Source: Candidatus Shapirobacteria bacterium CG09_land_8_20_14_0_10_38_17 (GTDB lineage: Bacteria; Patescibacteriota; Microgenomatia; 0-14-0-10-38-17). From it: 28,067 bases of DNA. The notes under the pieces were generated by a model. It saw only the letters and a program-made list of their open reading frames with translations, was not told the DNA's origin and did no database searches. The stretch covers positions 1-28,067 of the forward strand of contig PEZH01000010.1 in the NCBI GenBank assembly GCA_002774085.1. Reading direction: 5' to 3'. Below are positions 580 to 28,067 of this stretch, one piece after another. A program made the translations under genes and the position numbers. Position 1 is the stretch's first letter. The number at the start of each line of letters is the position of its first letter.

Positions 580-610
580 CCACCGAAGAGATGGGAATTG
601 AGGATTTTAT

Positions 611-726
611 TCCAAGAAAGCGAAAACTCCAACCACAGGTTGGAGATGAAGCGATATCAATGAACGCGCGAAACGCGACACAAAGCGGAACACAAAACCC
701 CAACCTTCAGGTCGTGGGTTTTTTAT
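611..726 (+). mobile_element. TTAT-bounded short non-autonomous element, copy 2 (116 bp, insert-free prototype)
   Basis: TTAT at 607-610 then tccaagaaagcg; AAAA 623-626; hairpin ctccaacc-aca-ggttggag 627-645; AAAA 694-697; bulged hairpin 698-718; ends TTAT 723-726. Similarity between copies stops at the TTAT on each side. Confidence 0.85.
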
Positions 727-7072: not shown

Positions 7073-8326
7073 ATGCTTTCGATTGACTTTATCCGCCAAA
7101 ACCAGCCGTTAGTTAAAAAAGTGGCTCGTGATAAACAGCTTGACCCAAGAGTGGTAGATCAACTTTTGGCAGTAGATATTAAAAGGCGAGAATTAATTCA
7201 GAAAATAGAAAAATTGCGGGAAGAAAGAAACCAGGTAGCGCGGCAGAGGGATATTAAACGAGGCAGAGAGATAAAGGCGGCGTTAGTAAAATTCGAACCT
7301 CAACTTAAAAAGGTTGAGAGAGAATATAAAAGCTTAATGCTTTTAATTCCCAATATTCCTTCAGAGGATTCGCCCTTAGAGAATAAAGAAATTTATCGCT
7401 GGGGTAAAAAGCCGAAATTTAACTTTCCGCCGCGTTCTCACCTTGAGCTTGGGGAAGAATTAGGTTTAATTGATTTAAAAACAGGAGTTAAAACAGCCGG
7501 TTTTCGTGGTTATTATCTTAAGAATGAGGCGGCCTTACTTCATTTTGCCCTTTTATTTTATTCTTGGCAAAAGATTATTAGTAAGGGCTTTATGCCCATG
7601 TTGCCGCCGACAATTTTGCGGGAATTTGCTCTTTTGGGAAGTGGTCACTTTCCTTTTGGTCGGGAGGATGTTTACCAAATTGCCAATCCCGGTAAACTCT
7701 CAAGTGGTGAGGAAATTAGCGAACCATTGTTTTTAGCGGGCACGGCCGAGCCCTCGCTTTTAGCTTATTTTGCCAATCAGACTTTAAAAGAAGAGGATTT
7801 ACCGGTTAAAGTTTGCGGTTGGACGCAATGTTATCGCTCCGAAGTGGGCAGTTATGGCCGGGATACTCAAGGTGTTTACCGGATTCATGAGTTTATGAAG
7901 GTAGAGCAAGTGGTTTTATGTCTAGCTGATGAGGTAATTGCTGACCAGTGGCTGGAGAAAATGCGGATTTATTCGGAAGAAATTTTGCGTGATTTAAAAC
8001 TTCCATATCGGGTAATTCAGGTGGGAAAGAAAGAGATGGGGGTGGGGAAGCGGAAAATGTATGATTTGGAAACCTGGATGCCATCAAGAGAGGGCTATGG
8101 GGAAACCCATTCTGATTCTAATTTGACCGATTGGCAGGCGCGGCGGCTAAATATAAAATATAAAACTAAGAAAGGGGAAACAAAATATGTTTACGCCTTG
8201 AATAATACGGTGATTGCTTCGCCGCGGATTTTAATTGCCATTTTGGAAAATTATCAGCAAAAAGACGGCTCCATTTTAATTCCCAAGGTTTTGCAAAAGC
8301 TAGTAGGGAAAAAGGAAATTGGCTAA
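7073..8326 (+). CDS. serS: serine--tRNA ligase
   Basis: MLSIDFIRQN start, LAGTAEPSL, CYRSEVGSYGRDTQGVYRIHEFMKVEQ, YDLETWMPSR, LNNTVIASPRILIAILENYQQKDGSILIP. Confidence 0.98.
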   Translation: MLSIDFIRQNQPLVKKVARDKQLDPRVVDQLLAVDIKRRELIQKIEKLREERNQVARQRDIKRGREIKAALVKFEPQLKKVEREYKSLMLLIPNIPSEDSPLENKEIYRWGKKPKFNFPPRSHLELGEELGLIDLKTGVKTAGFRGYYLKNEAALLHFALLFYSWQKIISKGFMPMLPPTILREFALLGSGHFPFGREDVYQIANPGKLSSGEEISEPLFLAGTAEPSLLAYFANQTLKEEDLPVKVCGWTQCYRSEVGSYGRDTQGVYRIHEFMKVEQVVLCLADEVIADQWLEKMRIYSEEILRDLKLPYRVIQVGKKEMGVGKRKMYDLETWMPSREGYGETHSDSNLTDWQARRLNIKYKTKKGETKYVYALNNTVIASPRILIAILENYQQKDGSILIPKVLQKLVGKKEIG

Positions 8327-8438
8327 AATTATCGTTTTGATTAATATTATAGGGTGGGGATATAAGATTAAGTGATCGTTTAATTTTATGTCCTAAATTT
8401 TATTTCAAGAAATAGGTAATAATTGAGGAGAATATTTT

Positions 8439-9051: not shown

Positions 9052-10497
9052 TTAATTGTTTTTGTATCGGCCAAAGAGTTTTTCATTTTGATAGCTGGTA
9101 ATTTGAATGGGAATAATCTTTTTGGGTAGCTTTCTTTGGTTTTCCTGCCTGCAACGCTTTGGTCCGCCAGGTGGCGGAGATTGCGGGCAGGTAATTTTTA
9201 CTTCCCAGAAGTTTTCGGTTAGGCCGCGCCAGTAATTTTTCTTCTTGCCGATAATAAGACAATTTAATTTTTTTCCTACCAGCTTTTCGGCTTCTTCACG
9301 GCGAATTTTTTTAACCAATTCACTGACTTTCTTGCTTCTTTCTTTTTTAATTTTTTCTGAAATTTCCTGCCATTGATTGTTTTTAGTCATTTTGTAAGCG
9401 ATTGTCCCGGGTCGGGGTGAGTAGCGAAAAATATGGGCAAAGGCAATTTTTACCTCTTCAATATAATGAAGTGTTTCTTGAAAATCATTTTCGGTTTCGT
9501 CTGGAAAGCCAACGATGATATCGGCGCGGAGATTAAATTGGGGAATTTCCTGTTTAATATATTGTAGTAGGTCTTTTAATTTATTAAGATCCGTCTTGGG
9601 TCTATTCATTTTGATTAATATTTTTTTTGATCCTGATTGAAGGGCAATATGAAAATAGAAAGATAGTCTTTTTGAGCCGCTTCGCCAATCGTTAGTATAG
9701 AGATTAATTAATTTTTTATTAATGAGGTTTGGAGTTAGAGAACTTAAAGAAAGGCGGGAAATATTGGTTTTTTGGAGGATATTTTTTAGCAATTCTACCA
9801 AATCGGTTTTCGGTTTTAAATCCTGACCAAATAGCGATAAATTGATGCCGCAGAGATTTATTTCTAAAATGCCCTCTTTTTCTAATTTTTTAATTTCTCT
9901 GATAATTTGCGTCACTGGTTTGCTTTTTAATTGGTTGCGAAGATAGGGAACAATGCAAAAAGTGCAAAATTGATTACAACCGTCTTGGATTTTTACCCAT
10001 CTTCGAATTGACATATCCATCTGTTTGATAGGTGGAGAAAACTTATCCCGCCCTGGCGGGCTGGTTTGAGGTGCGAATGATGGGTAGCCCTTCGCCGCTT
10101 TAGTAAAGGAGGGTTTCTGGGCTAAAATTTCGGGAATTTTCTCTTTATCTTGGTTGCCAATAAAAAGATCAGCCTCTGGCAATTTTATTCCTAATTTTTT
10201 TTGGGCTTCAACCGCGCATCCGGTAGCCAATAAAAAACTTTGAGGGAAAATTCTCTTTAAATGACGAATTTCTTTTCGAGTTTCTCGTTCTGCTTTTTTG
10301 GTGACAACACAAGTATTTAAAATAATAATATCGGGGTATTTGTTTATAAAAGGGAAATTTTGAGAAGCAAAAGGAAGAAATCCTGCTTTAATGAGGTCTT
10401 TTTTTATTTGATTGATTTCTTCTTGATTAACCCTACAACCTAATGAACGACACAAAATGGTGAGAGGATAATTATTTTTTAGAGAAAAGCCATTCAT
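9052..10497 (-). CDS. mtaB: tRNA methylthiotransferase, MtaB-type radical SAM enzyme
   Basis: SLGCRVNQEE, NTCVVTKKAE, TGC, CxxxCxxC in KIQDGCNQFCTFCIVP, DIIVGFPDET, HIFRYSPRPGT; MtaB rather than MiaB by NTC.VT/KIQDGC patterns. Confidence 0.85.
   Translation of the reverse strand: MNGFSLKNNYPLTILCRSLGCRVNQEEINQIKKDLIKAGFLPFASQNFPFINKYPDIIILNTCVVTKKAERETRKEIRHLKRIFPQSFLLATGCAVEAQKKLGIKLPEADLFIGNQDKEKIPEILAQKPSFTKAAKGYPSFAPQTSPPGRDKFSPPIKQMDMSIRRWVKIQDGCNQFCTFCIVPYLRNQLKSKPVTQIIREIKKLEKEGILEINLCGINLSLFGQDLKPKTDLVELLKNILQKTNISRLSLSSLTPNLINKKLINLYTNDWRSGSKRLSFYFHIALQSGSKKILIKMNRPKTDLNKLKDLLQYIKQEIPQFNLRADIIVGFPDETENDFQETLHYIEEVKIAFAHIFRYSPRPGTIAYKMTKNNQWQEISEKIKKERSKKVSELVKKIRREEAEKLVGKKLNCLIIGKKKNYWRGLTENFWEVKITCPQSPPPGGPKRCRQENQRKLPKKIIPIQITSYQNEKLFGRYKNN
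9144..9191. repeat. 48-bp nested palindrome inside mtaB, in frame
   Basis: cctgcctgcaa...ttgcgggcagg outer arms enclosing tccgcca-gg-tggcgga; encodes TCPQSPPPGGPKRCRQE. Confidence 0.8.
10047..10113. repeat. two GC micro-palindromes in the mtaB interdomain linker
   Basis: cccgcc-ct-ggcggg (10047-10060) and imperfect cccttcgccgctttagtaaaggaggg (10088-10113) within the Pro-rich linker KPSFTKAAKGYPSFAPQTSPPGRD. Confidence 0.55.
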
Positions 10498-10833: not shown

Positions 10834-13539
10834 ATGTTTTCACTTAAAAATATTTTTGATACCAATTCTAAAGAGATTAAAAGGTTATCTAAAATAGTAG
10901 AAGAAATTAATAAAAGGGAAGGGAGAATTAAAAAATTAACCGATAAGCAGCTTGCTGATAGAACAAAAGAACTTAAAAAGAGGTTAAAAAAAGAAAATCT
11001 AAACACTATTTTGCCTGAGGCATTTGCGGTAGTGCGTGAGGTGGCTCAGAGAACCATTGTTGGCCAGCGTCATTTTGATGTTCAGTTAATGGCCGCCATT
11101 GCTTTATTTGAGGGGAAGGTGGTGGAGCAAAAAACCGGTGAAGGAAAAACTCTGGCGGCGACTCCGGCGCTTTATTTGCGGGCCCTAACAGGGAAAGGGG
11201 CTCATTTGGTGACAGTTAACGACTATTTGGCACGGCGTGATGCCGGTTGGATGGGATCAATTTTTGATTTTTTAGGACTAAAAATAGGTTGTATTATTCA
11301 CGATCAGGCCTTTTTGTTTGATTCTCAATTTACCACTAAAACTGACGACGAACGATTAGCTCATTTACGGCCAGTAGAAAGAAAAGAAGCTTACTTAGCC
11401 GATATTACCTATGGCACTAATAATGAATTTGGTTTTGACTATCTTCGTGATAATATGGCTTTAAATTGGGATGATAAAGTGCAGAGAGGGCATTATTTTG
11501 CCATTGTTGATGAGGTTGATTTTGCCTTGATTGATGAAGCGCGAACTCCTTTAATTATTTCTTCTCCTGAGGCTGAAGCGACTAATAAATATTTTCAGTT
11601 TGCTTCATTGGTTAAATCTCTTTTTCCGCAAACCGACTACACCATAGATGAGGAATCGCAAGTTGTTTCTTTAACCAATCACGGGATTACCAAGGTGGAA
11701 AAGATGTTAGCAATTGATAATCTTTATGAGAAAGATTTTGAAACAGTTCACCATATTGAAAATGCTCTTAAGGCAAAAGAATTATTCAGACGAGATCGGG
11801 ATTATGTAATTAAGGATGGTGAAATAGTGATTGTTGATGAATTTACCGGTCGTTTAATGTTTGGCCGCCGTTGGTCGGCGGGGTTACATCAGGCAGTTGA
11901 AGCCAAAGAAGGAGTGGTGATTAAGCAAGAATCAAAAACTCTGGCAACGATTTCTTTCCAAAATTATTTTCGTCTTTACCAAGTTTTATCGGGGATGACG
12001 GGGACGGCATTTACCTCTAAAGAAGAATTTAAGAAAATTTATAATTTAGAGACAGTGGTAGTTCCCACTAATAAGCCGATGATTCGTCAAGATAAGACTG
12101 ATGCCATTTTTAAAAATCAGCGGGCAAAATATGCGGCGATAGCCAGTGATGTAGAGAAATGTTATCAAGCGGGACAACCGGTTTTAGTGGGGACCACTTC
12201 GATTGAGAAAAATGAAATTGTTTCTCACCTATTAAAGCATAAAAAAATTCCCCATCAGATTTTGAACGCCAAAAATCACGAGAAAGAAGCTTTGATAATT
12301 GCTCAAGCCGGAGGGAAAGGGGTAATAACGGTGGCTACTAATATGGCGGGACGGGGAGTGGATATTGTTTTGGGCGGAGAACCGCCAAAAAAAATCCAAA
12401 ATCCAGTCCGCCAGCTGGCGGACAAAACCCAAAACTATAAAGAAGAATATGAAAAATGGCAAGAAGAACATAACGAGATAGTTAGGTTAGGGGGATTACA
12501 TGTTATCGGGACGGAAAGACATGAGGCGCGGCGAATTGATAATCAATTGAGGGGACGATCCGGGAGACAGGGTGATCCCGGCTCATCTCGATTTTATGTT
12601 GCTTTAGACGATGATATGATGCGGGTATTTGGTGGAGAACGGATAGCTGGTCTTATGACCCAATTTGATTTTCCCGAAGAAATTCCCGTGGAAAATAAAT
12701 TGATTGGTCGGGCGATTGAGCAAATTCAAGCTAAAGTAGAAGGGGTTAATTTTGATTCTCGCCGCTATTTAGTGGAATATGATGACGTGATGAGTAAGCA
12801 ACGGGAGATTATCTATAGAATTCGCGATAAAATCTTGTTACAGGCAAAAAATAAGGATTTTGAAGGTCTAAAAAAGACTATTGGGGATAAAGTTAATAAA
12901 GAAATAGATGGTCTGATCGGTGGAGGGGAACTGCGATTAGACGATAAAGCAATTGTTAATGAATTTTCCGAAATAGTTCCCCTTGATAAGGACACTCAGC
13001 AAAACTTGACCGATAAGATTAATGGTTGTTCATTTGATAAGGTCAAGGAGTTGTTGTCAGATTTAGCTAAAGATGCTTATGGTGATTTAGAGAAAAATAT
13101 AGGGATAGAAACATTGTTGGCAATAAATAAATTAGTGTTTCTGATGACCATTGATAATTTATGGACAAGCCACTTGGATGATATGGAAAATTTACGAGAA
13201 GGAATAGGGTTGCGAGCCTATGGACAGCAAGATCCGTTGTCTGCTTATAAAAATGAATCTTTTGTTGTTTTTGAACGATTGATGGATCAAATTGATTATG
13301 AGGTGGTGCGGCGAGTCTTTCGGGCGCGATTGATGCCGCCAGCGCCGGTATTTATGCCTCAAAATATAACGACTAATGTTGATTCTGCCGACGGTATGGG
13401 TTTAGCTAATCCTAAGAGAACCGTGGGTTTAATGGTAAAACCTGTTGTTCCCAATCAACCTCATCCTGGTCGCAACGATCCCTGCCCCTGCGGGAGCGGG
13501 AAAAAATATAAAAAATGTTGTTACCCCAAATATGGGTAA
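10834..13539 (+). CDS. secA: preprotein translocase subunit SecA
   Basis: QKTGEGKT, DEVDFALIDEARTPLIIS, ATNMAGRGVDI, GTERHEARRIDNQLRGRSGRQGDPG, C-terminal SEC-C GRNDPCPCGSGKKYKKCC. Confidence 0.99.
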   Translation: MFSLKNIFDTNSKEIKRLSKIVEEINKREGRIKKLTDKQLADRTKELKKRLKKENLNTILPEAFAVVREVAQRTIVGQRHFDVQLMAAIALFEGKVVEQKTGEGKTLAATPALYLRALTGKGAHLVTVNDYLARRDAGWMGSIFDFLGLKIGCIIHDQAFLFDSQFTTKTDDERLAHLRPVERKEAYLADITYGTNNEFGFDYLRDNMALNWDDKVQRGHYFAIVDEVDFALIDEARTPLIISSPEAEATNKYFQFASLVKSLFPQTDYTIDEESQVVSLTNHGITKVEKMLAIDNLYEKDFETVHHIENALKAKELFRRDRDYVIKDGEIVIVDEFTGRLMFGRRWSAGLHQAVEAKEGVVIKQESKTLATISFQNYFRLYQVLSGMTGTAFTSKEEFKKIYNLETVVVPTNKPMIRQDKTDAIFKNQRAKYAAIASDVEKCYQAGQPVLVGTTSIEKNEIVSHLLKHKKIPHQILNAKNHEKEALIIAQAGGKGVITVATNMAGRGVDIVLGGEPPKKIQNPVRQLADKTQNYKEEYEKWQEEHNEIVRLGGLHVIGTERHEARRIDNQLRGRSGRQGDPGSSRFYVALDDDMMRVFGGERIAGLMTQFDFPEEIPVENKLIGRAIEQIQAKVEGVNFDSRRYLVEYDDVMSKQREIIYRIRDKILLQAKNKDFEGLKKTIGDKVNKEIDGLIGGGELRLDDKAIVNEFSEIVPLDKDTQQNLTDKINGCSFDKVKELLSDLAKDAYGDLEKNIGIETLLAINKLVFLMTIDNLWTSHLDDMENLREGIGLRAYGQQDPLSAYKNESFVVFERLMDQIDYEVVRRVFRARLMPPAPVFMPQNITTNVDSADGMGLANPKRTVGLMVKPVVPNQPHPGRNDPCPCGSGKKYKKCCYPKYG
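12406..12423. repeat. perfect 18-bp palindrome inserted in frame in secA
   Basis: gtccgccagctggcggac, flanked by aaaatcc/aaaaccc 7-mers; the tccgccagctggcgga core is identical at 25443-25458 and 27926-27941. Confidence 0.85.
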
Positions 13540-13560: not shown

Positions 13561-13653
13561 TTATCCGTCTTATCCGCCCTATCTGTCTTATTTATCTTAT
13601 CTGTCCCATTCGTCCCATTTGTCCTATCTGCCCTATCCGTCCCATTTGTCCCA
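13561..13653. repeat. 10-unit degenerate 9-mer tandem array (consensus YYATYYGTC)
   Basis: ttatccgtc ttatccgcc ctatctgtc ttatttatc ttatctgtc ccattcgtc ccatttgtc ctatctgcc ctatccgtc ccatttgtc. Confidence 0.9.
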
Positions 13654-13755
13654 GTGGGTTTTATGTTCTGAGGTCACACCGCAGGCGACTGGATTGGGAT
13701 GACAACTAAGATACTGTGGTAAAATAACTTCGTTACTTCTAAGGGTGCACCTTAT

Positions 13756-13865
13756 TTCAAGAAAACCAGGAACCAAGGCTTTTAGGTTTGGGATGAAGGC
13801 GGTCTAAAAAGAACGAACGAAGTGAATATCAAGCGAAACAGGGCTATTAGCCCTCGGAGCCTTAT
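13756..13865 (+). mobile_element. diverged relative of the TTAT-bounded element (copy 5)
   Basis: TTAT|ttcaagaaaacc...hairpin...gatgaag...gaacgaacgaag...aagcgaaaca-gggct-att-agccc...TTAT parallels TTAT|tccaagaaagcg...gatgaag...gaacgcgcgaag...aagcggaaca. Confidence 0.6.
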
Positions 13866-13893
13866 TATTTACTTTAAAAAGGGAGGGTTTTTT

Positions 13894-24839: not shown

Positions 24840-24853
24840 GATATGTATAGTGT

Positions 24854-25230
24854 ATGGGGTTATTATGTTCACTTCGTTCACACCAACCCCATGAGTATAT
24901 GAAAAGAAAGATTTAATTTCTTAATTTCCGTGAGCGTAGCGAACAAATTTCCTAATTTCAACTAATGAAACGAGCGAATTTCTTTTAATTTCTACGAGCC
25001 TCGCACCAGAACGGTGCAGGGCTCGTTGTTTCGGTTAATTCTTACCCGTCTAGACGACGAGGCTGATAATCTCTAATATCTGTTTTGATATTTGTCCGCC
25101 GGCTGGCGGATCCCCAGCTAGCCTCGCCGATGAGGCGGGCCAGCCTCATCGGCGAGGCGGGAATGACAAGTTAGCAGCAATATAGCAATGTAATTTACCT
25201 TGTCATCCTGAGAGTACTCTGAAAGATCCT
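24854..25230. repeat. cluster of at least six different palindromic units
   Basis: atggggtt/aaccccat (24854-24892); gagcgtagcgaa; acgagcc.cgcacc/ggtgc.gggctcgt (24994-25026); tccgccggctggcgga (25095-25110); gcctcgccgatgaggc/gcctcatcggcgaggc (25121-25158) inside ggatcccc...gggaatgac; gtcatcctgag..aagatcct (25202-25230). Confidence 0.8.
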
Positions 25231-25374
25231 CCTTAAAAGCGAAGCCTTTATTTTAATGTAGTAGTCACTTCAATAGAGTGTAGTAATAATTATTTTAACT
25301 GTGAAATATATTAGAAAATCTATTTTTTTAATTCTTCTTGACAATTAATTACTTAGTATTCTACACTCTTTGTT

Positions 25375-27042
25375 ATGAAAGGGTGGAAACTGATTGTTTT
25401 GGTTTCGATAACAGTAGTCTTTTTTTTATTCCAAGAAAGCGATCCGCCAGCTGGCGGACCAACCCTGGTTGGAGATGAAGCGATATCAATGAACGCGCGA
25501 AGCGCGACACAAAGCGGAACACAAAACCCCGACCGTAAGGTCATGGGTTTTTTATTTCCTTCTTTTATTTTAGCCCAAGATAAGGCGCAACTTAATGTTG
25601 TTTCTGTCATAGATAGAACTTTTTATGGTAATCAATGTAATCAATCGGAATGGATGTGGTTGTGCCAGGTTAACAATGCCAAAGTAGCTGCTTTAGGCGA
25701 AAAAGACGGTTGGGAATTTTTTTCTGACGATCTTTTTGATTCTGGCCAAAATCAGTGGATAGAGTTAATTTTTTTACCTTACGAGGGAGAGGTTGATGCA
25801 TCAGACCTTTCTTTATTCTTAAGGATGGTCGGGGGTAATATTGGTTTGGGCCATTTAGAGGTTTTGGTGGGAGAAAATTGGGAAAGGGTTTTGGGCAAAG
25901 AGGGCAGTGATTGGCATATTTTTGGGGGTGATTCCTCCTGGAATGAACAGATTGATTTGCTGGCTGTTTTAGGAGACAAAATAACGGAAGAGATAAAAAA
26001 AGGTTTAAAACTACGTATTCAGGCAGTTCCTTTTTATGCAATAAATGATAAAATTTTATTAGCGATTGATCAGTTAGTATTATCAGTTGGCTATTCGGAT
26101 AAGGTAGAAGTTACTCCCACCTTGGTTTCAGCAACCTTGACACCTACCTTAGTATTAACTTCCGTCCCTACTCCTACGCCCACCATTACGCCTACACCTA
26201 CCCCTACGCCTACCCCAACGCCCACCCCGTCCGATCAAGAAAAACCTAAAATTTCCTGGTTAAATCCAACCGAAAATGAGGTGGTTTTTGGTAAAGTGGC
26301 CTTAAAAGTTGATATTAGTGATAATTTAAACGATATTGATGAAGAAATTTATCCTCAATTTTTTTATCGTCCTTTTGGCCAGGGGTATTGGCAGGTGATT
26401 GATAATAAAATTTGGCAAACTCAAAATATTCCTCTGGGTGATTATCAATTACGATCAAGGGTTTGTGACCGGGCGGGTAATGAGAAATTAGAGGAAATTA
26501 ATATTGGTGTAGGGGCGGTAATCTTTAATGTGTTTCTTAATGAGAGATTATTGTCTTGGAGTACCGACCGGCCAACTATCGGTCGGATTATTTATGATCG
26601 TCTTTCTCATCAAAATGTTAACCCTAATTATCCTAATTTCAGTTATGCCTGGTCTAGTGGTGAAGTAGATAATGAAAAAATAACCAGTCATCAGTTTGCT
26701 ATTCCTCCTTTGCCGTCGGGAAAATATTTTTATCGTATTTTAGCCTTTGGTTCGCCCGTGTCTTACACTCCTGAATATTCTTTTGAGACCGATAATCTTT
26801 TATCTTTTGCCAATGATGAAGATAGGGAAGATGAATCTTCAATTTTGGGATTGGTGGTTAGCGTCACTCCAGCGGTTGAAGTTGAGGATGTAAAGGTAGA
26901 AGAAAAAACTAAAGAGCGCTTTGGCTTAGATAAAAGGCGACTTTTAGTTTTAGTAGCAGTTGGCCTTCTCTCCAGTTTGGGGATTTTCTATTTGACAAAA
27001 AATAAGAAAAAGACTTTAATGAGAAGCAATGAGAAACGGTAG
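25375..27042 (+). CDS. surface protein with (TP)n linker, Ig-like and FN3-like domains, C-terminal TM; signal peptide interrupted in frame by a 126-bp element
   Basis: TTGACA-18-TACACT upstream; (TP)n run; KPKISWLNP..VALKVDISD (Ig-like); LSWSTDRP...YFYRILA (FN3-like); C-terminal LLVLVAVGLLSSLGIFYL plus basic tail. Confidence 0.8.
   Translation: MKGWKLIVLVSITVVFFLFQESDPPAGGPTLVGDEAISMNARSATQSGTQNPDRKVMGFLFPSFILAQDKAQLNVVSVIDRTFYGNQCNQSEWMWLCQVNNAKVAALGEKDGWEFFSDDLFDSGQNQWIELIFLPYEGEVDASDLSLFLRMVGGNIGLGHLEVLVGENWERVLGKEGSDWHIFGGDSSWNEQIDLLAVLGDKITEEIKKGLKLRIQAVPFYAINDKILLAIDQLVLSVGYSDKVEVTPTLVSATLTPTLVLTSVPTPTPTITPTPTPTPTPTPTPSDQEKPKISWLNPTENEVVFGKVALKVDISDNLNDIDEEIYPQFFYRPFGQGYWQVIDNKIWQTQNIPLGDYQLRSRVCDRAGNEKLEEINIGVGAVIFNVFLNERLLSWSTDRPTIGRIIYDRLSHQNVNPNYPNFSYAWSSGEVDNEKITSHQFAIPPLPSGKYFYRILAFGSPVSYTPEYSFETDNLLSFANDEDREDESSILGLVVSVTPAVEVEDVKVEEKTKERFGLDKRRLLVLVAVGLLSSLGIFYLTKNKKKTLMRSNEKR
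25430..25555 (+). mobile_element. TTAT-bounded element, copy 3 (126 bp), inside a CDS
   Basis: TTAT 25426-25429 | tccaagaaagcga ... gggttttTTAT 25552-25555; carries the tccgccagctggcgga insert. Confidence 0.9.
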
Positions 27043-27912: not shown

Positions 27913-28062
27913 TCCCAGAAAGCGATCCGCCAGCTGGCGGACCAGCCTCGCCGGCTAGGCGGGCCAACCGTCAGGCTGGAGATGAAGCGATATCAATAAA
28001 CGCGCGAAGCGCGACACAAAGCGGAGCACAAAAACCCGACCGTCAGGTCGTGAGTTTTTTAT
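27913..28062 (+). mobile_element. TTAT-bounded element, copy 4 (150 bp, two nested inserts)
   Basis: TTAT 27909-27912 | tcccagaaagcga, tccgccagctggcgga, ccagcctcgccggctaggcggg, core, ends TTAT 28059-28062. Confidence 0.88.
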
Positions 28063-28067
28063 TTCAA

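Follow-up and report, generated by a model that had tools for sequence, protein, structure and literature searches.

The locus raises a simple question: what is the repeat at positions 611 to 726, and how did it get there? The window is the whole stretch of DNA that was analysed, 28,067 nucleotides, and it is the whole of contig C8 of a 523-kb, 53-contig, 83%-complete genome of a Candidatus Shapirobacteria bacterium. The public runs that contain this contig are groundwater and aquifer metagenomes. An earlier note, made from the letters alone, had described five copies of a mini-element in one shared orientation, and the sequence itself, a repeat search and a covariance model together place the five copies where that note had put them. 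The repeat is very probably a palindrome-associated transposable element (PATE), a non-autonomous derivative of the IS200/IS605 transposons in which the left and right ends are fused and no transposase gene is present.

The repeat search showed 80-100% identity over 92 nt among four same-strand copies in the window. The fifth copy, at 13751-13867, is divergent; nhmmer missed it, and it emerged only when the covariance model was run without filters (24 bits, E 9e-4). Across the 523-kb genome there are 38 nhmmer matches, about 24 of them near full length, and 37 covariance-model matches. A high copy number with constant boundaries had been named beforehand as a check, and about 37 copies in a 0.52 Mb genome is far above chance. 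The local repeat is 110-160 bp long, and mini-elements of the family range from 104 to 179 nt, which is too short for a transposase gene. About ten contig ends fall inside copies, including both ends of the window contig. The assembly of this 83%-complete genome is fragmented at repeats.

Relatives of the element were found with the covariance model, R1, which was built from the five copies without inserted hairpins. Searching relatives with blastn returned only fragments, and the covariance model was needed for full-length matches. With R1, full-length relatives were found in 12 of 61 genomes of the same class and then in 25 of 151, at 1-16 copies per genome, so the distribution of the family in the class is patchy and multi-copy. 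Copy 1, cut by the contig end in the window, has a full form of 157 nt in public assemblies. Copy 3 has preserved two pairings described below, P0 (UUUC:GAAA) and Px (CC:GG), through compensatory changes. An element of a second subfamily begins at 28063, straight after the terminal TTAT of copy 5; the population contig L169, which runs on past the right end of the window, shows this tandem, and a tandem of the same kind is found on C38.

Table. Coordinates of the copies in the window, of the parts of the prototype copy and of the interrupted gene.
Feature	Position	Strand	Remark
Copy 1, 5'-truncated by contig end	1..117	+	two inserted micro-palindromes
Copy 2, prototype element without inserted hairpins	611..726	+	between ytxH-like gene and lon; covariance model 139.5 bits, E 4e-30
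Copy 3, old divergent member, 5' region of next gene	13756..13865	+	TTAT kept at both ends
Copy 4, in-frame insertion (42 codons), signal-peptide region of ORF 25375-27042	25430..25555	+	orthologues without insert
Copy 5, two micro-palindromes	27913..28062	+	covariance model
Copy 2: TTAT target, left cleavage tetranucleotide C_L	607..610	+	pairs with guide AAAA under IS608 code
Copy 2: P0 5' strand, first three bases of element (plus T610)	611..613	+	pairs with 687-689 (plus A690)
Copy 2: Px 5' strand (GC)	620..621	+	pairs with 651-652, closing the guide / hairpin / ATGAA module
Copy 2: left guide G_L (AAAA), abuts left hairpin foot on its 5' side	623..626	+	position matches IS608 G_L (PMC3201880)
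Copy 2: left subterminal hairpin IP_L (P1)	627..645	+	conserved ATGAA next, 646-650
Copy 2: central mini-hairpin P2	665..677	+	compensatory change in 5/5 pairs
Copy 2: P0 3' strand (GGAA)	687..690	+	covariation
Copy 2: right guide G_R (AAAA)	694..697	+	guide tabulation
Copy 2: right subterminal hairpin IP_R (P3), bulged T, T6 next	698..718	+	terminator-like on both strands
Copy 2: right cleavage tetranucleotide C_R (TTAT), last element bases	723..726	+	conservation ends here in all copies
Host ORF interrupted by copy 4: secreted protein, no Pfam family on record	25375..27042	+	gene order conserved

The anatomy of the prototype can be read directly, and the geometry given for it in the earlier note is exact. 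TTAT stands immediately before the element (607-610) and closes it (723-726), AAAA at 623-626 abuts the left hairpin at 627-645, and AAAA at 694-697 abuts a bulged hairpin at 698-718 that ends 8 nt from the right end. The boundaries are constant, with (T)TTAT on the left and a T-run plus TTAT on the right in essentially all full copies. There are no terminal inverted repeats: TCCAAG... at one end is not the inverted counterpart of ...TTTTTTAT at the other. Instead, imperfect palindromes that resemble each other lie on the same strand just inside both ends, and P1 and P3 covary, a change in one going with a change in the other from subfamily to subfamily. Folded as single-stranded DNA, copy 2 forms three hairpins (z = -2.97). 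The central CGCGC-GNA-GCGCG hairpin had been claimed for copies 1, 3 and 4; copies 1 and 4 do carry it, while copy 3 (13756) does not. It is perfect in 1-117, 25430 and 27913 and has one mismatch in 611-726. P2 is optional in the family, being missing from one copy in G000 and from the G068 subfamily.

One insertion event is demonstrated by comparison with orthologues. The gene order around ORF 25375-27042 (vanZ, a galE-like epimerase, the ORF, a CAP-domain gene) is conserved, and five orthologues of the ORF, with 38-80% identity to its first 140 residues, have an uninterrupted signal peptide without the 42-43 residues encoded by copy 4. In the closest orthologous DNAs, from two loci on three contigs, a single T-run plus TTAT is followed by TTCC. 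In the window the order is T-run TTAT, the element ending in T-run TTAT, and then TTCC, and deleting 25430-25555 restores the orthologous sequence with one TTAT. An empty orthologous site that retains one TTAT, as the earlier note had anticipated for a real insertion, therefore exists for copy 4. The boundary at this empty site is ambiguous by up to 8-9 bases, the target T-run being equal to the element's own 3' T-run; it was fixed at TTAT because in other copies the left flank and the right end have only TTAT in common. Insertion 3' of a specific tetranucleotide, without target duplication, was found at this one orthologue-level empty site. A second candidate empty site lies after the CAP-domain gene, where the orthologue has 30 nt and this lineage has 306 nt; the AT-rich flank there aligns too poorly for the TTAT to be placed.

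The origin of the ends was traced through elements that carry a transposase. Full-length tnpA elements with matching ends, as expected, were found in other genomes of the class, and none was found in this genome. Two weak model matches at the 3' end of a transposase gene led to loci L079 in genome G020 and L070 in G048. The TnpA encoded by L079 is 143 aa long and has the HUH and catalytic-Tyr motifs. Upstream of its tnpA is a P1-like bulged hairpin and then GATGAAGCGAT, that is, the P1 module of the mini-element; downstream come CACAAAAC, next a hairpin that matches the consensus form of the family's P3 at 21/21 bases, and finally TTAT. L070 is degenerate but has ends as in L079, including the right-end hairpin with 21/21 identical bases. 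In a third genome, G141, a tnpA element (L157) and a mini-element (L135) share their first 20 bases after TTTAT. The homology of the mini-element ends to tnpA-bearing elements is thus demonstrated, and because the ends match those in L079, L070 and G141, the mini-elements are read as fused IS200/IS605 ends.

Canonical TnpA was defined as a protein of 135-171 aa with a PF01797 E-value of 1e-18 or better. It is encoded in 13 of 151 genomes. Among the 25 element-bearing genomes only G020, G075 and G141 have it, and no canonical tnpA was found in the remaining 22. A tblastn search with the L079 TnpA did not find a canonical tnpA in this 83%-complete genome, and the same search found nothing in G001, G005, G006, G040 or G045. 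The PF01797 proteins of this genome are only RAYT-like proteins of 220-230 aa and a 52-aa fragment beside tnpB. Likewise, the complete single-contig genome G068 has six near-identical copies of the element and only RAYT-like Y1 proteins. The driver of the mini-elements may have escaped the bins, may have disappeared once the bursts were over, or may be provided only for short periods. The absence of a cognate TnpA bears on current mobility, not on origin.

These protein inventories bring in another reading, in which the family is a REP/BIME-like mosaic repeat that is kept or moved by the resident 220-250-aa RAYT-like Y1 proteins and not by a canonical TnpA. No Y1 proteins other than RAYT-like ones were found here or in most element-bearing genomes, genomes that lack canonical tnpA have had recent bursts, and this genome is full of nested palindromic repeats. 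In a covariance-model scan, an element copy adjoins one of 14 RAYT-like loci, but the other 13 loci are without an element. RAYT-like genes are also present in 3 of 5 element-free genomes, and they were not found in G040 despite its 5-6 copies. On C27, the RAYT-like gene is flanked on both sides by a hairpin of its own that differs from the element and numbers about 19 copies in the genome. Apart from the one adjoining copy, the repeats studied here neither bracket nor accompany a RAYT-like gene at the 14 loci, and their ends match canonical tnpA elements. We rate the RAYT-like proteins as weak candidates for the driver and consider it very improbable that they explain the family.

The fused-end reading makes a prediction about the bases that border each copy, since TnpA of the IS608 type is guided to its cleavage sites by pairing. 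In the right end of IS608, C-3 pairs with G-35 and T-4 pairs with A-34, A-2 has no other base interaction, and base triples are formed with the two bases 3' of the hairpin foot (PMC3201880). The mapping used here (c1-g2, c2-g1, c4-g4) was taken from that paper and from both IS608 ends, with the c4-g4 pair presumed. A total of 122 element ends were tabulated, which gives 366 position pairs, and 92% of these are Watson-Crick under the IS608 mapping, compared with 74% and 67% under two alternative mappings. In 5000 shuffles of the distinct combinations, guide and cleavage site never paired as well as observed.

The cleavage and guide sequences fall into four classes. TTAT with guide AA-N-A is the majority class; CTAT goes with AG-N-A at 17/22 ends, TCAT with GA-N-A at 13/13 right ends, and TTAC with AAAG at 9/11 ends. 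The two ends of one element can differ in class. The rule given in the earlier note, that an AANA guide predicts TTAT, holds and extends by covariation to the three other tetranucleotides. The code also predicts the left cleavage sites of the full-length elements, TTTA for guide AAAT in L079 and CTAA for AGAT in L070; both were found, read by eye and not computed, 16-17 nt from the hairpin foot, a spacing like that in the window. The positions of the triple-forming bases of IS608 are taken here by the ATGAA that directly follows the left hairpin and by the AG that follows right hairpins of the TCAT type. Guide and cleavage site demonstrably covary. The family is a natural covariation data set with four cleavage/guide classes, and the covariation independently supports the guide code that was established biochemically for IS608.

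A mechanism can be proposed from the biochemistry of IS608. With the top strand single-stranded, a Y1 HUH TnpA supplied in trans would bind the two similar hairpins, IP_L and IP_R. The AAAA on the 5' side of each hairpin foot would pair with TTAT through c1-g2, c2-g1 and c4-g4, leaving c3 free, and this pairing would direct the two cuts, one immediately behind the TTAT of the left flank and the other immediately behind the TTAT at the element's right end. The element would then leave as a single-stranded circle and re-insert 3' of another TTAT, without target duplication. Catalysis by TnpA on this element, and any current mobility, are what we infer from the likeness to IS608. Taken together, the boundaries, the empty site, the tnpA elements with the same ends and the guide code support the view, already put forward in the earlier note, of a non-autonomous PATE-like element of the peel-and-paste kind.

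The fold of the element is conserved as well as its ends. The covariation alignment consisted of 66 covariance-model matches, and 40 further copies from 16 genomes were fetched. In the 66-sequence alignment, 91.3% of the cells are paired over the whole structure and 24/26 pairs show compensatory change; for P1 alone the values are 92.7% and 7/8 pairs. The covariation score is 0.438, compared with 0.161 in shuffles (0/500 reached 0.438) and at most 0.057 with slid partners.

Two of the pairings, Px and P0, lie outside the IS608 model and are specific to this family, in which they are conserved by covariation. They were not in the model behind the alignment and are therefore less biased by it. 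Px encloses the left guide, the left hairpin and ATGAA; its covariants are GC:GC, GU:AC, GGU:ACC and AG:CU, and its length is 2-9 bp, longest in other genomes. In P0, the three or four bases at the very start of the element pair with a segment on the 5' side of the right guide. All four of the P0 pairs (4/4) show compensatory changes, 83% of its cells are paired, and the two strands are exact complements in 84% of copies, compared with 34% in a cross-control. Its variants include TCC:GGA, TTC:GAA, AAC:GTT, TGC:GCA and CAC:GTG, and it reaches 7 bp in G068. P0 is not evident in the full-length element L079. Px and P0 may help a very short single-stranded substrate to pre-fold and to bring its ends into synapsis, and P0 would lengthen the right hairpin across the junction once the element is an excised circle. 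Less probably, the two pairings have a role in an RNA.

A bolder proposal would make the mini-elements a distinct architectural subclass, with ends joined by P0 and a guide pocket preformed by Px. Such a self-synapsing substrate might need no canonical tnpA in its own genome and be moved by the RAYT-like Y1 proteins (220-250 aa) that are ubiquitous in these bacteria, or by a transient TnpA. We regard this proposal as rather doubtful; if true, it would explain how complete genomes with no canonical transposase came to have recent bursts.

Covariation of a discrete structured RNA had been named in the earlier note as a finding that would speak against a transposon. The covariation is indeed present, but it fits transposon-end hairpins and guide pairing better than an RNA. 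The RNA reading holds that the repeat is a structured cis-regulatory RNA, such as an attenuator or a riboswitch-like leader, or a multicopy small RNA, with a three-way junction and an intrinsic terminator. In it, the 3' strand of P1 could pair with the 5' strand of the terminator as an antiterminator. RNAalifold does select this alternative pairing between the P1 3' strand and the P3 5' strand, with compensatory changes, but the apparent antiterminator follows from the likeness of the left and right hairpins. The covariation is strong in all helices, including the long-range P0 and Px, and the purine-rich single-stranded linkers are conserved. Against this, the crossed covariation of c1 with g2 and of c2 with g1 is the signature of TnpA-bound single-stranded DNA and not of an RNA helix. 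By its score the right end is terminator-like, but several subfamilies, with CTAT or TCAT as right ends, have no T-run.

The genomic contexts of the copies bear on the same question. About 19/27 local copies are co-oriented with a gene that starts close downstream, and the family persists in genomes without tnpA, as an RNA might. However, all four gene contexts are occupied: about eight local copies either point towards a convergent gene or run antisense to the genes on both sides, and many copies in relatives have no co-oriented downstream gene. The downstream genes are unrelated (the ytxH-like gene, lon, a third gene and the gene for the secreted protein), and one copy is a lineage-specific insertion inside an ORF. 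The copies neither keep a constant sense position in 5' leaders nor accompany a coherent set of genes. Because no gene context is free of copies and one copy interrupts an ORF, the covariation is not read as that of a dedicated regulatory RNA. No Rfam family was matched: at the gathering threshold on the window and in E-value mode on copy 4, only chance matches appeared (MicX, Thr leader). In L079, moreover, tnpA sits between the two halves, and on this and the crossed guide code the initial reading as an antiterminator or riboswitch-like three-way junction was dropped. A role as regulatory or small RNA is highly unlikely. A hammerhead or K-turn was also considered for the GAUGA / GAAA loop; by inspection, its strand topology does not fit.

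If the repeat is a fused-end mini-transposon, the local copies do not all look ready to move. In about 18 of the roughly 24 full copies, the AAAA left guide has been replaced by a perfect palindrome of 16 nt, and one or two hairpins of 22-23 nt are often added to these copies. The 16-nt palindrome can be found at 51 places in the genome, frequently within other repeats. The guide is kept in only five copies: 611-726, two on C17 and C42, and a divergent pair on C14 and C26. With the left guide replaced, the palindrome-bearing copies would, by the code, direct no cleavage at the left end. Yet these copies are the ones most alike one another, and the IS608 model does not explain why. Because no canonical tnpA is assembled and the left guide is replaced, most local copies are probably immobile, and we take them to be, probably, relics of a recent burst.

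Public assemblies, and contigs assembled from public runs, give the population side of this picture. Copies 1 and 2 are retained in 10/10 public assemblies examined that carry the ytxH-like gene, with no presence/absence difference among them; copy 2 is present and fixed in all ten. The differing left flanks in public assemblies look like assembly chimeras across the repeat. Over a 14-kb stretch, four groundwater runs gave only short, low-depth assembled contigs that break at the repeats, and in these neither a joint skipping 611-726 nor a circle junction was seen. The orientation of the copies agrees with the strand of the local gene in 25/29 cases and with GC skew in 23/29, and the two are confounded. 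Such agreement is the expectation for targeting of the lagging-strand template, but it is inseparable from gene strand.

The right end, which combines a GC hairpin, an A-run and T6 and scores as terminator-like, should act as a bidirectional intrinsic terminator. This geometry would suit yet another account, in which the origin is the same but the copies are dead relics, multiplied now by recombination or gene conversion alone and kept as terminators or stabilisers of mRNA ends. The left guide is displaced in most copies, although it is intact in five, and no polymorphism was seen among public assemblies. Halves of different copies are joined in assemblies, but chimeric joins in short-read assemblies are more likely artefacts. 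Subfamilies without a T-run show that the terminator is not a conserved property, and an insertion inside the coding region of a signal peptide is unlikely to be beneficial. We consider this account very improbable.

We therefore return to the mini-transposon made of fused IS200/IS605 ends, which is a known kind of selfish DNA. What is unusual is its abundance in a tiny genome with no matching transposase gene assembled. A streamlined, tiny genome of a groundwater bacterium can evidently bear a heavy load of single-strand "peel-and-paste" mini-transposons, here about 37 copies and about 1% of the genome. These mini-elements break assemblies, and at least one disrupts a gene. Recognition of the family prevents the terminator-like right end or the covarying fold from being mis-annotated as a regulatory RNA. 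In most carriers the family occurs without a canonical transposase, which repeats the puzzle, first met in Haloquadratum, of who moves such elements.

Among known systems, the closest in mechanism is IS608 of Helicobacter pylori. Both have imperfect subterminal hairpins with a bulged base on the top strand at both ends, a 4-nt guide that abuts each hairpin foot on its 5' side, with c1-g2, c2-g1 and c4-g4 paired and c3 unpaired, and insertion 3' of a target tetranucleotide without duplication. AT stands directly 3' of the left hairpin foot in both, AG stands directly 3' of the right hairpin foot in IS608 and in the TCAT subfamilies of this family, and the TTAC/AAAG variant in G068 and G040 is identical to the IS608 left end. 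The mini-element differs in having no tnpA or tnpB and in having TTAT on both sides, whereas IS608 cleaves at TTAC and TCAA. The spacing on the left and right is 16 nt and 8 nt, compared with 19 and 10 in IS608, and the covarying Px and P0 are not described there.

The closest in kind are the PATEs of Haloquadratum walsbyi (PMC3119063). They too are short of room for a transposase, have no terminal inverted repeats and make no target duplication, and their near-terminal palindromes resemble each other and those of IS605-type transposons. They form homogeneous high-copy subfamilies, are present though functional tnpA is scarce or absent, and are targeted near their palindromes by small repeats. 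Unlike these haloarchaeal elements, the mini-element is bacterial, lives in a very small genome and is only about 116 nt long. The invading unit is here a micro-palindrome of 16-23 nt that replaces the left guide, while in PATEs it is the 110-bp SMR-A element.

With REP/BIME sequences and their RAYT proteins, the family shares GC-rich hairpins in mosaic arrays, a relative of the Y1 HUH enzymes encoded in the genome, and possible roles in termination or mRNA stability. It differs from REP/BIME in having two different functional ends with guides that match canonical tnpA elements, and the RAYT-like gene here has a separate hairpin family. Finally, a transposon end hairpin with a T-run can stop transcription, which gives insertions polar effects; the left-end hairpin of Salmonella IS200 acts as a terminator, and Correia elements are miniature elements that carry terminators. 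Compared with these, the terminator-like hairpin of the present family is the right end, it looks bidirectional, and its function as a terminator is putative, as judged from its sequence.

A perfect 16-nt micro-palindrome, TCCGCC-AGCT-GGCGGA, is found at 51 sites across the whole genome and often lies within the loop of another hairpin-forming repeat. In mini-transposons it invariably occupies the left-guide position (the 4 nt directly 5' of the left hairpin). The same 20 bases are found also in several further families of the class. Between the epimerase gene and the ORF interrupted by copy 4, the gap (window 24840-25374) spans 535 nt versus 137-148 nt at orthologous loci, and the surplus DNA consists of several palindromic repeat units piled up.

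The terminal TTAT of copy 5 leads directly into an element of a second subfamily, from window 28063-28067 onward (L169:2532-2658 on the population contig), whose left end is TTAT and whose right end is CTAT, as in genus g2. The same tandem is seen on contig C38, with a second-subfamily element right behind the terminal TTAT of a mini-element. Copy 3, which is divergent, is separated from a 901-aa ORF (10834-13539) by a tandem array of ten 9-nt units (13561-13650; consensus approximately TTATCTGTC). In contigs from all four public groundwater runs this copy differs, by T>C or A>G, at four linked positions (13787, 13788, 13809 and 13829). With two of these changes, an alternative left stem formed by 13766-13770 and 13787-13791 would have G-C pairs in place of G-T wobbles. 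The copy 1 locus was found in public assemblies (L108:1316-1494, L109:175-331), some of which fuse copy 1 to the left flanks of other copies, C11-like and C17/C42-like. These fusions reflect either an assembler switch inside the repeat or recombination between copies.

In another genome of the class, G033, at least six contigs end in a match to the right-end hairpin module (33-36 nt, 94-95% identity). The full-length covariance model probably missed a related high-copy element in this genome.

Coordinates of the repeats and of the TnpB-family and Y1 genes
Feature	Contig or locus	Positions
Micro-palindrome	window	9163-9178, 12407-12422, 25096-25111, 25443-25458, 27926-27941
Contig ends matching right-end module	L012, L031, L034 and others (G033)	
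TnpB-family genes or fragments	C23	5587-5787
TnpB-family genes or fragments	C35	601-798, 4214-4381, 112-183
RAYT-like Y1 protein gene, 228 aa	C27 (L001)	L001:1291-1977
Hairpin pair around RAYT-like ORF	C27 (L001)	8311-8341 and 9095-9127 (L001:1258-1288 and 2042-2074)

One TnpB-family gene of the Shapirobacteria genome is intact (376 aa) and the rest are fragments; a 52-aa C-terminal remnant of a Y1 transposase adjoins one of them, and no mini-element flanks any of those on C23 and C35. The RAYT-like gene has on either side a copy of a hairpin (AGCCTCGCAAGG, 5 nt, CCTTGCGAGGCT) that differs from the mini-element hairpins and is present in about 19 copies across the genome. The gene and its flanking hairpins look like a separate system, of the REP/RAYT type.
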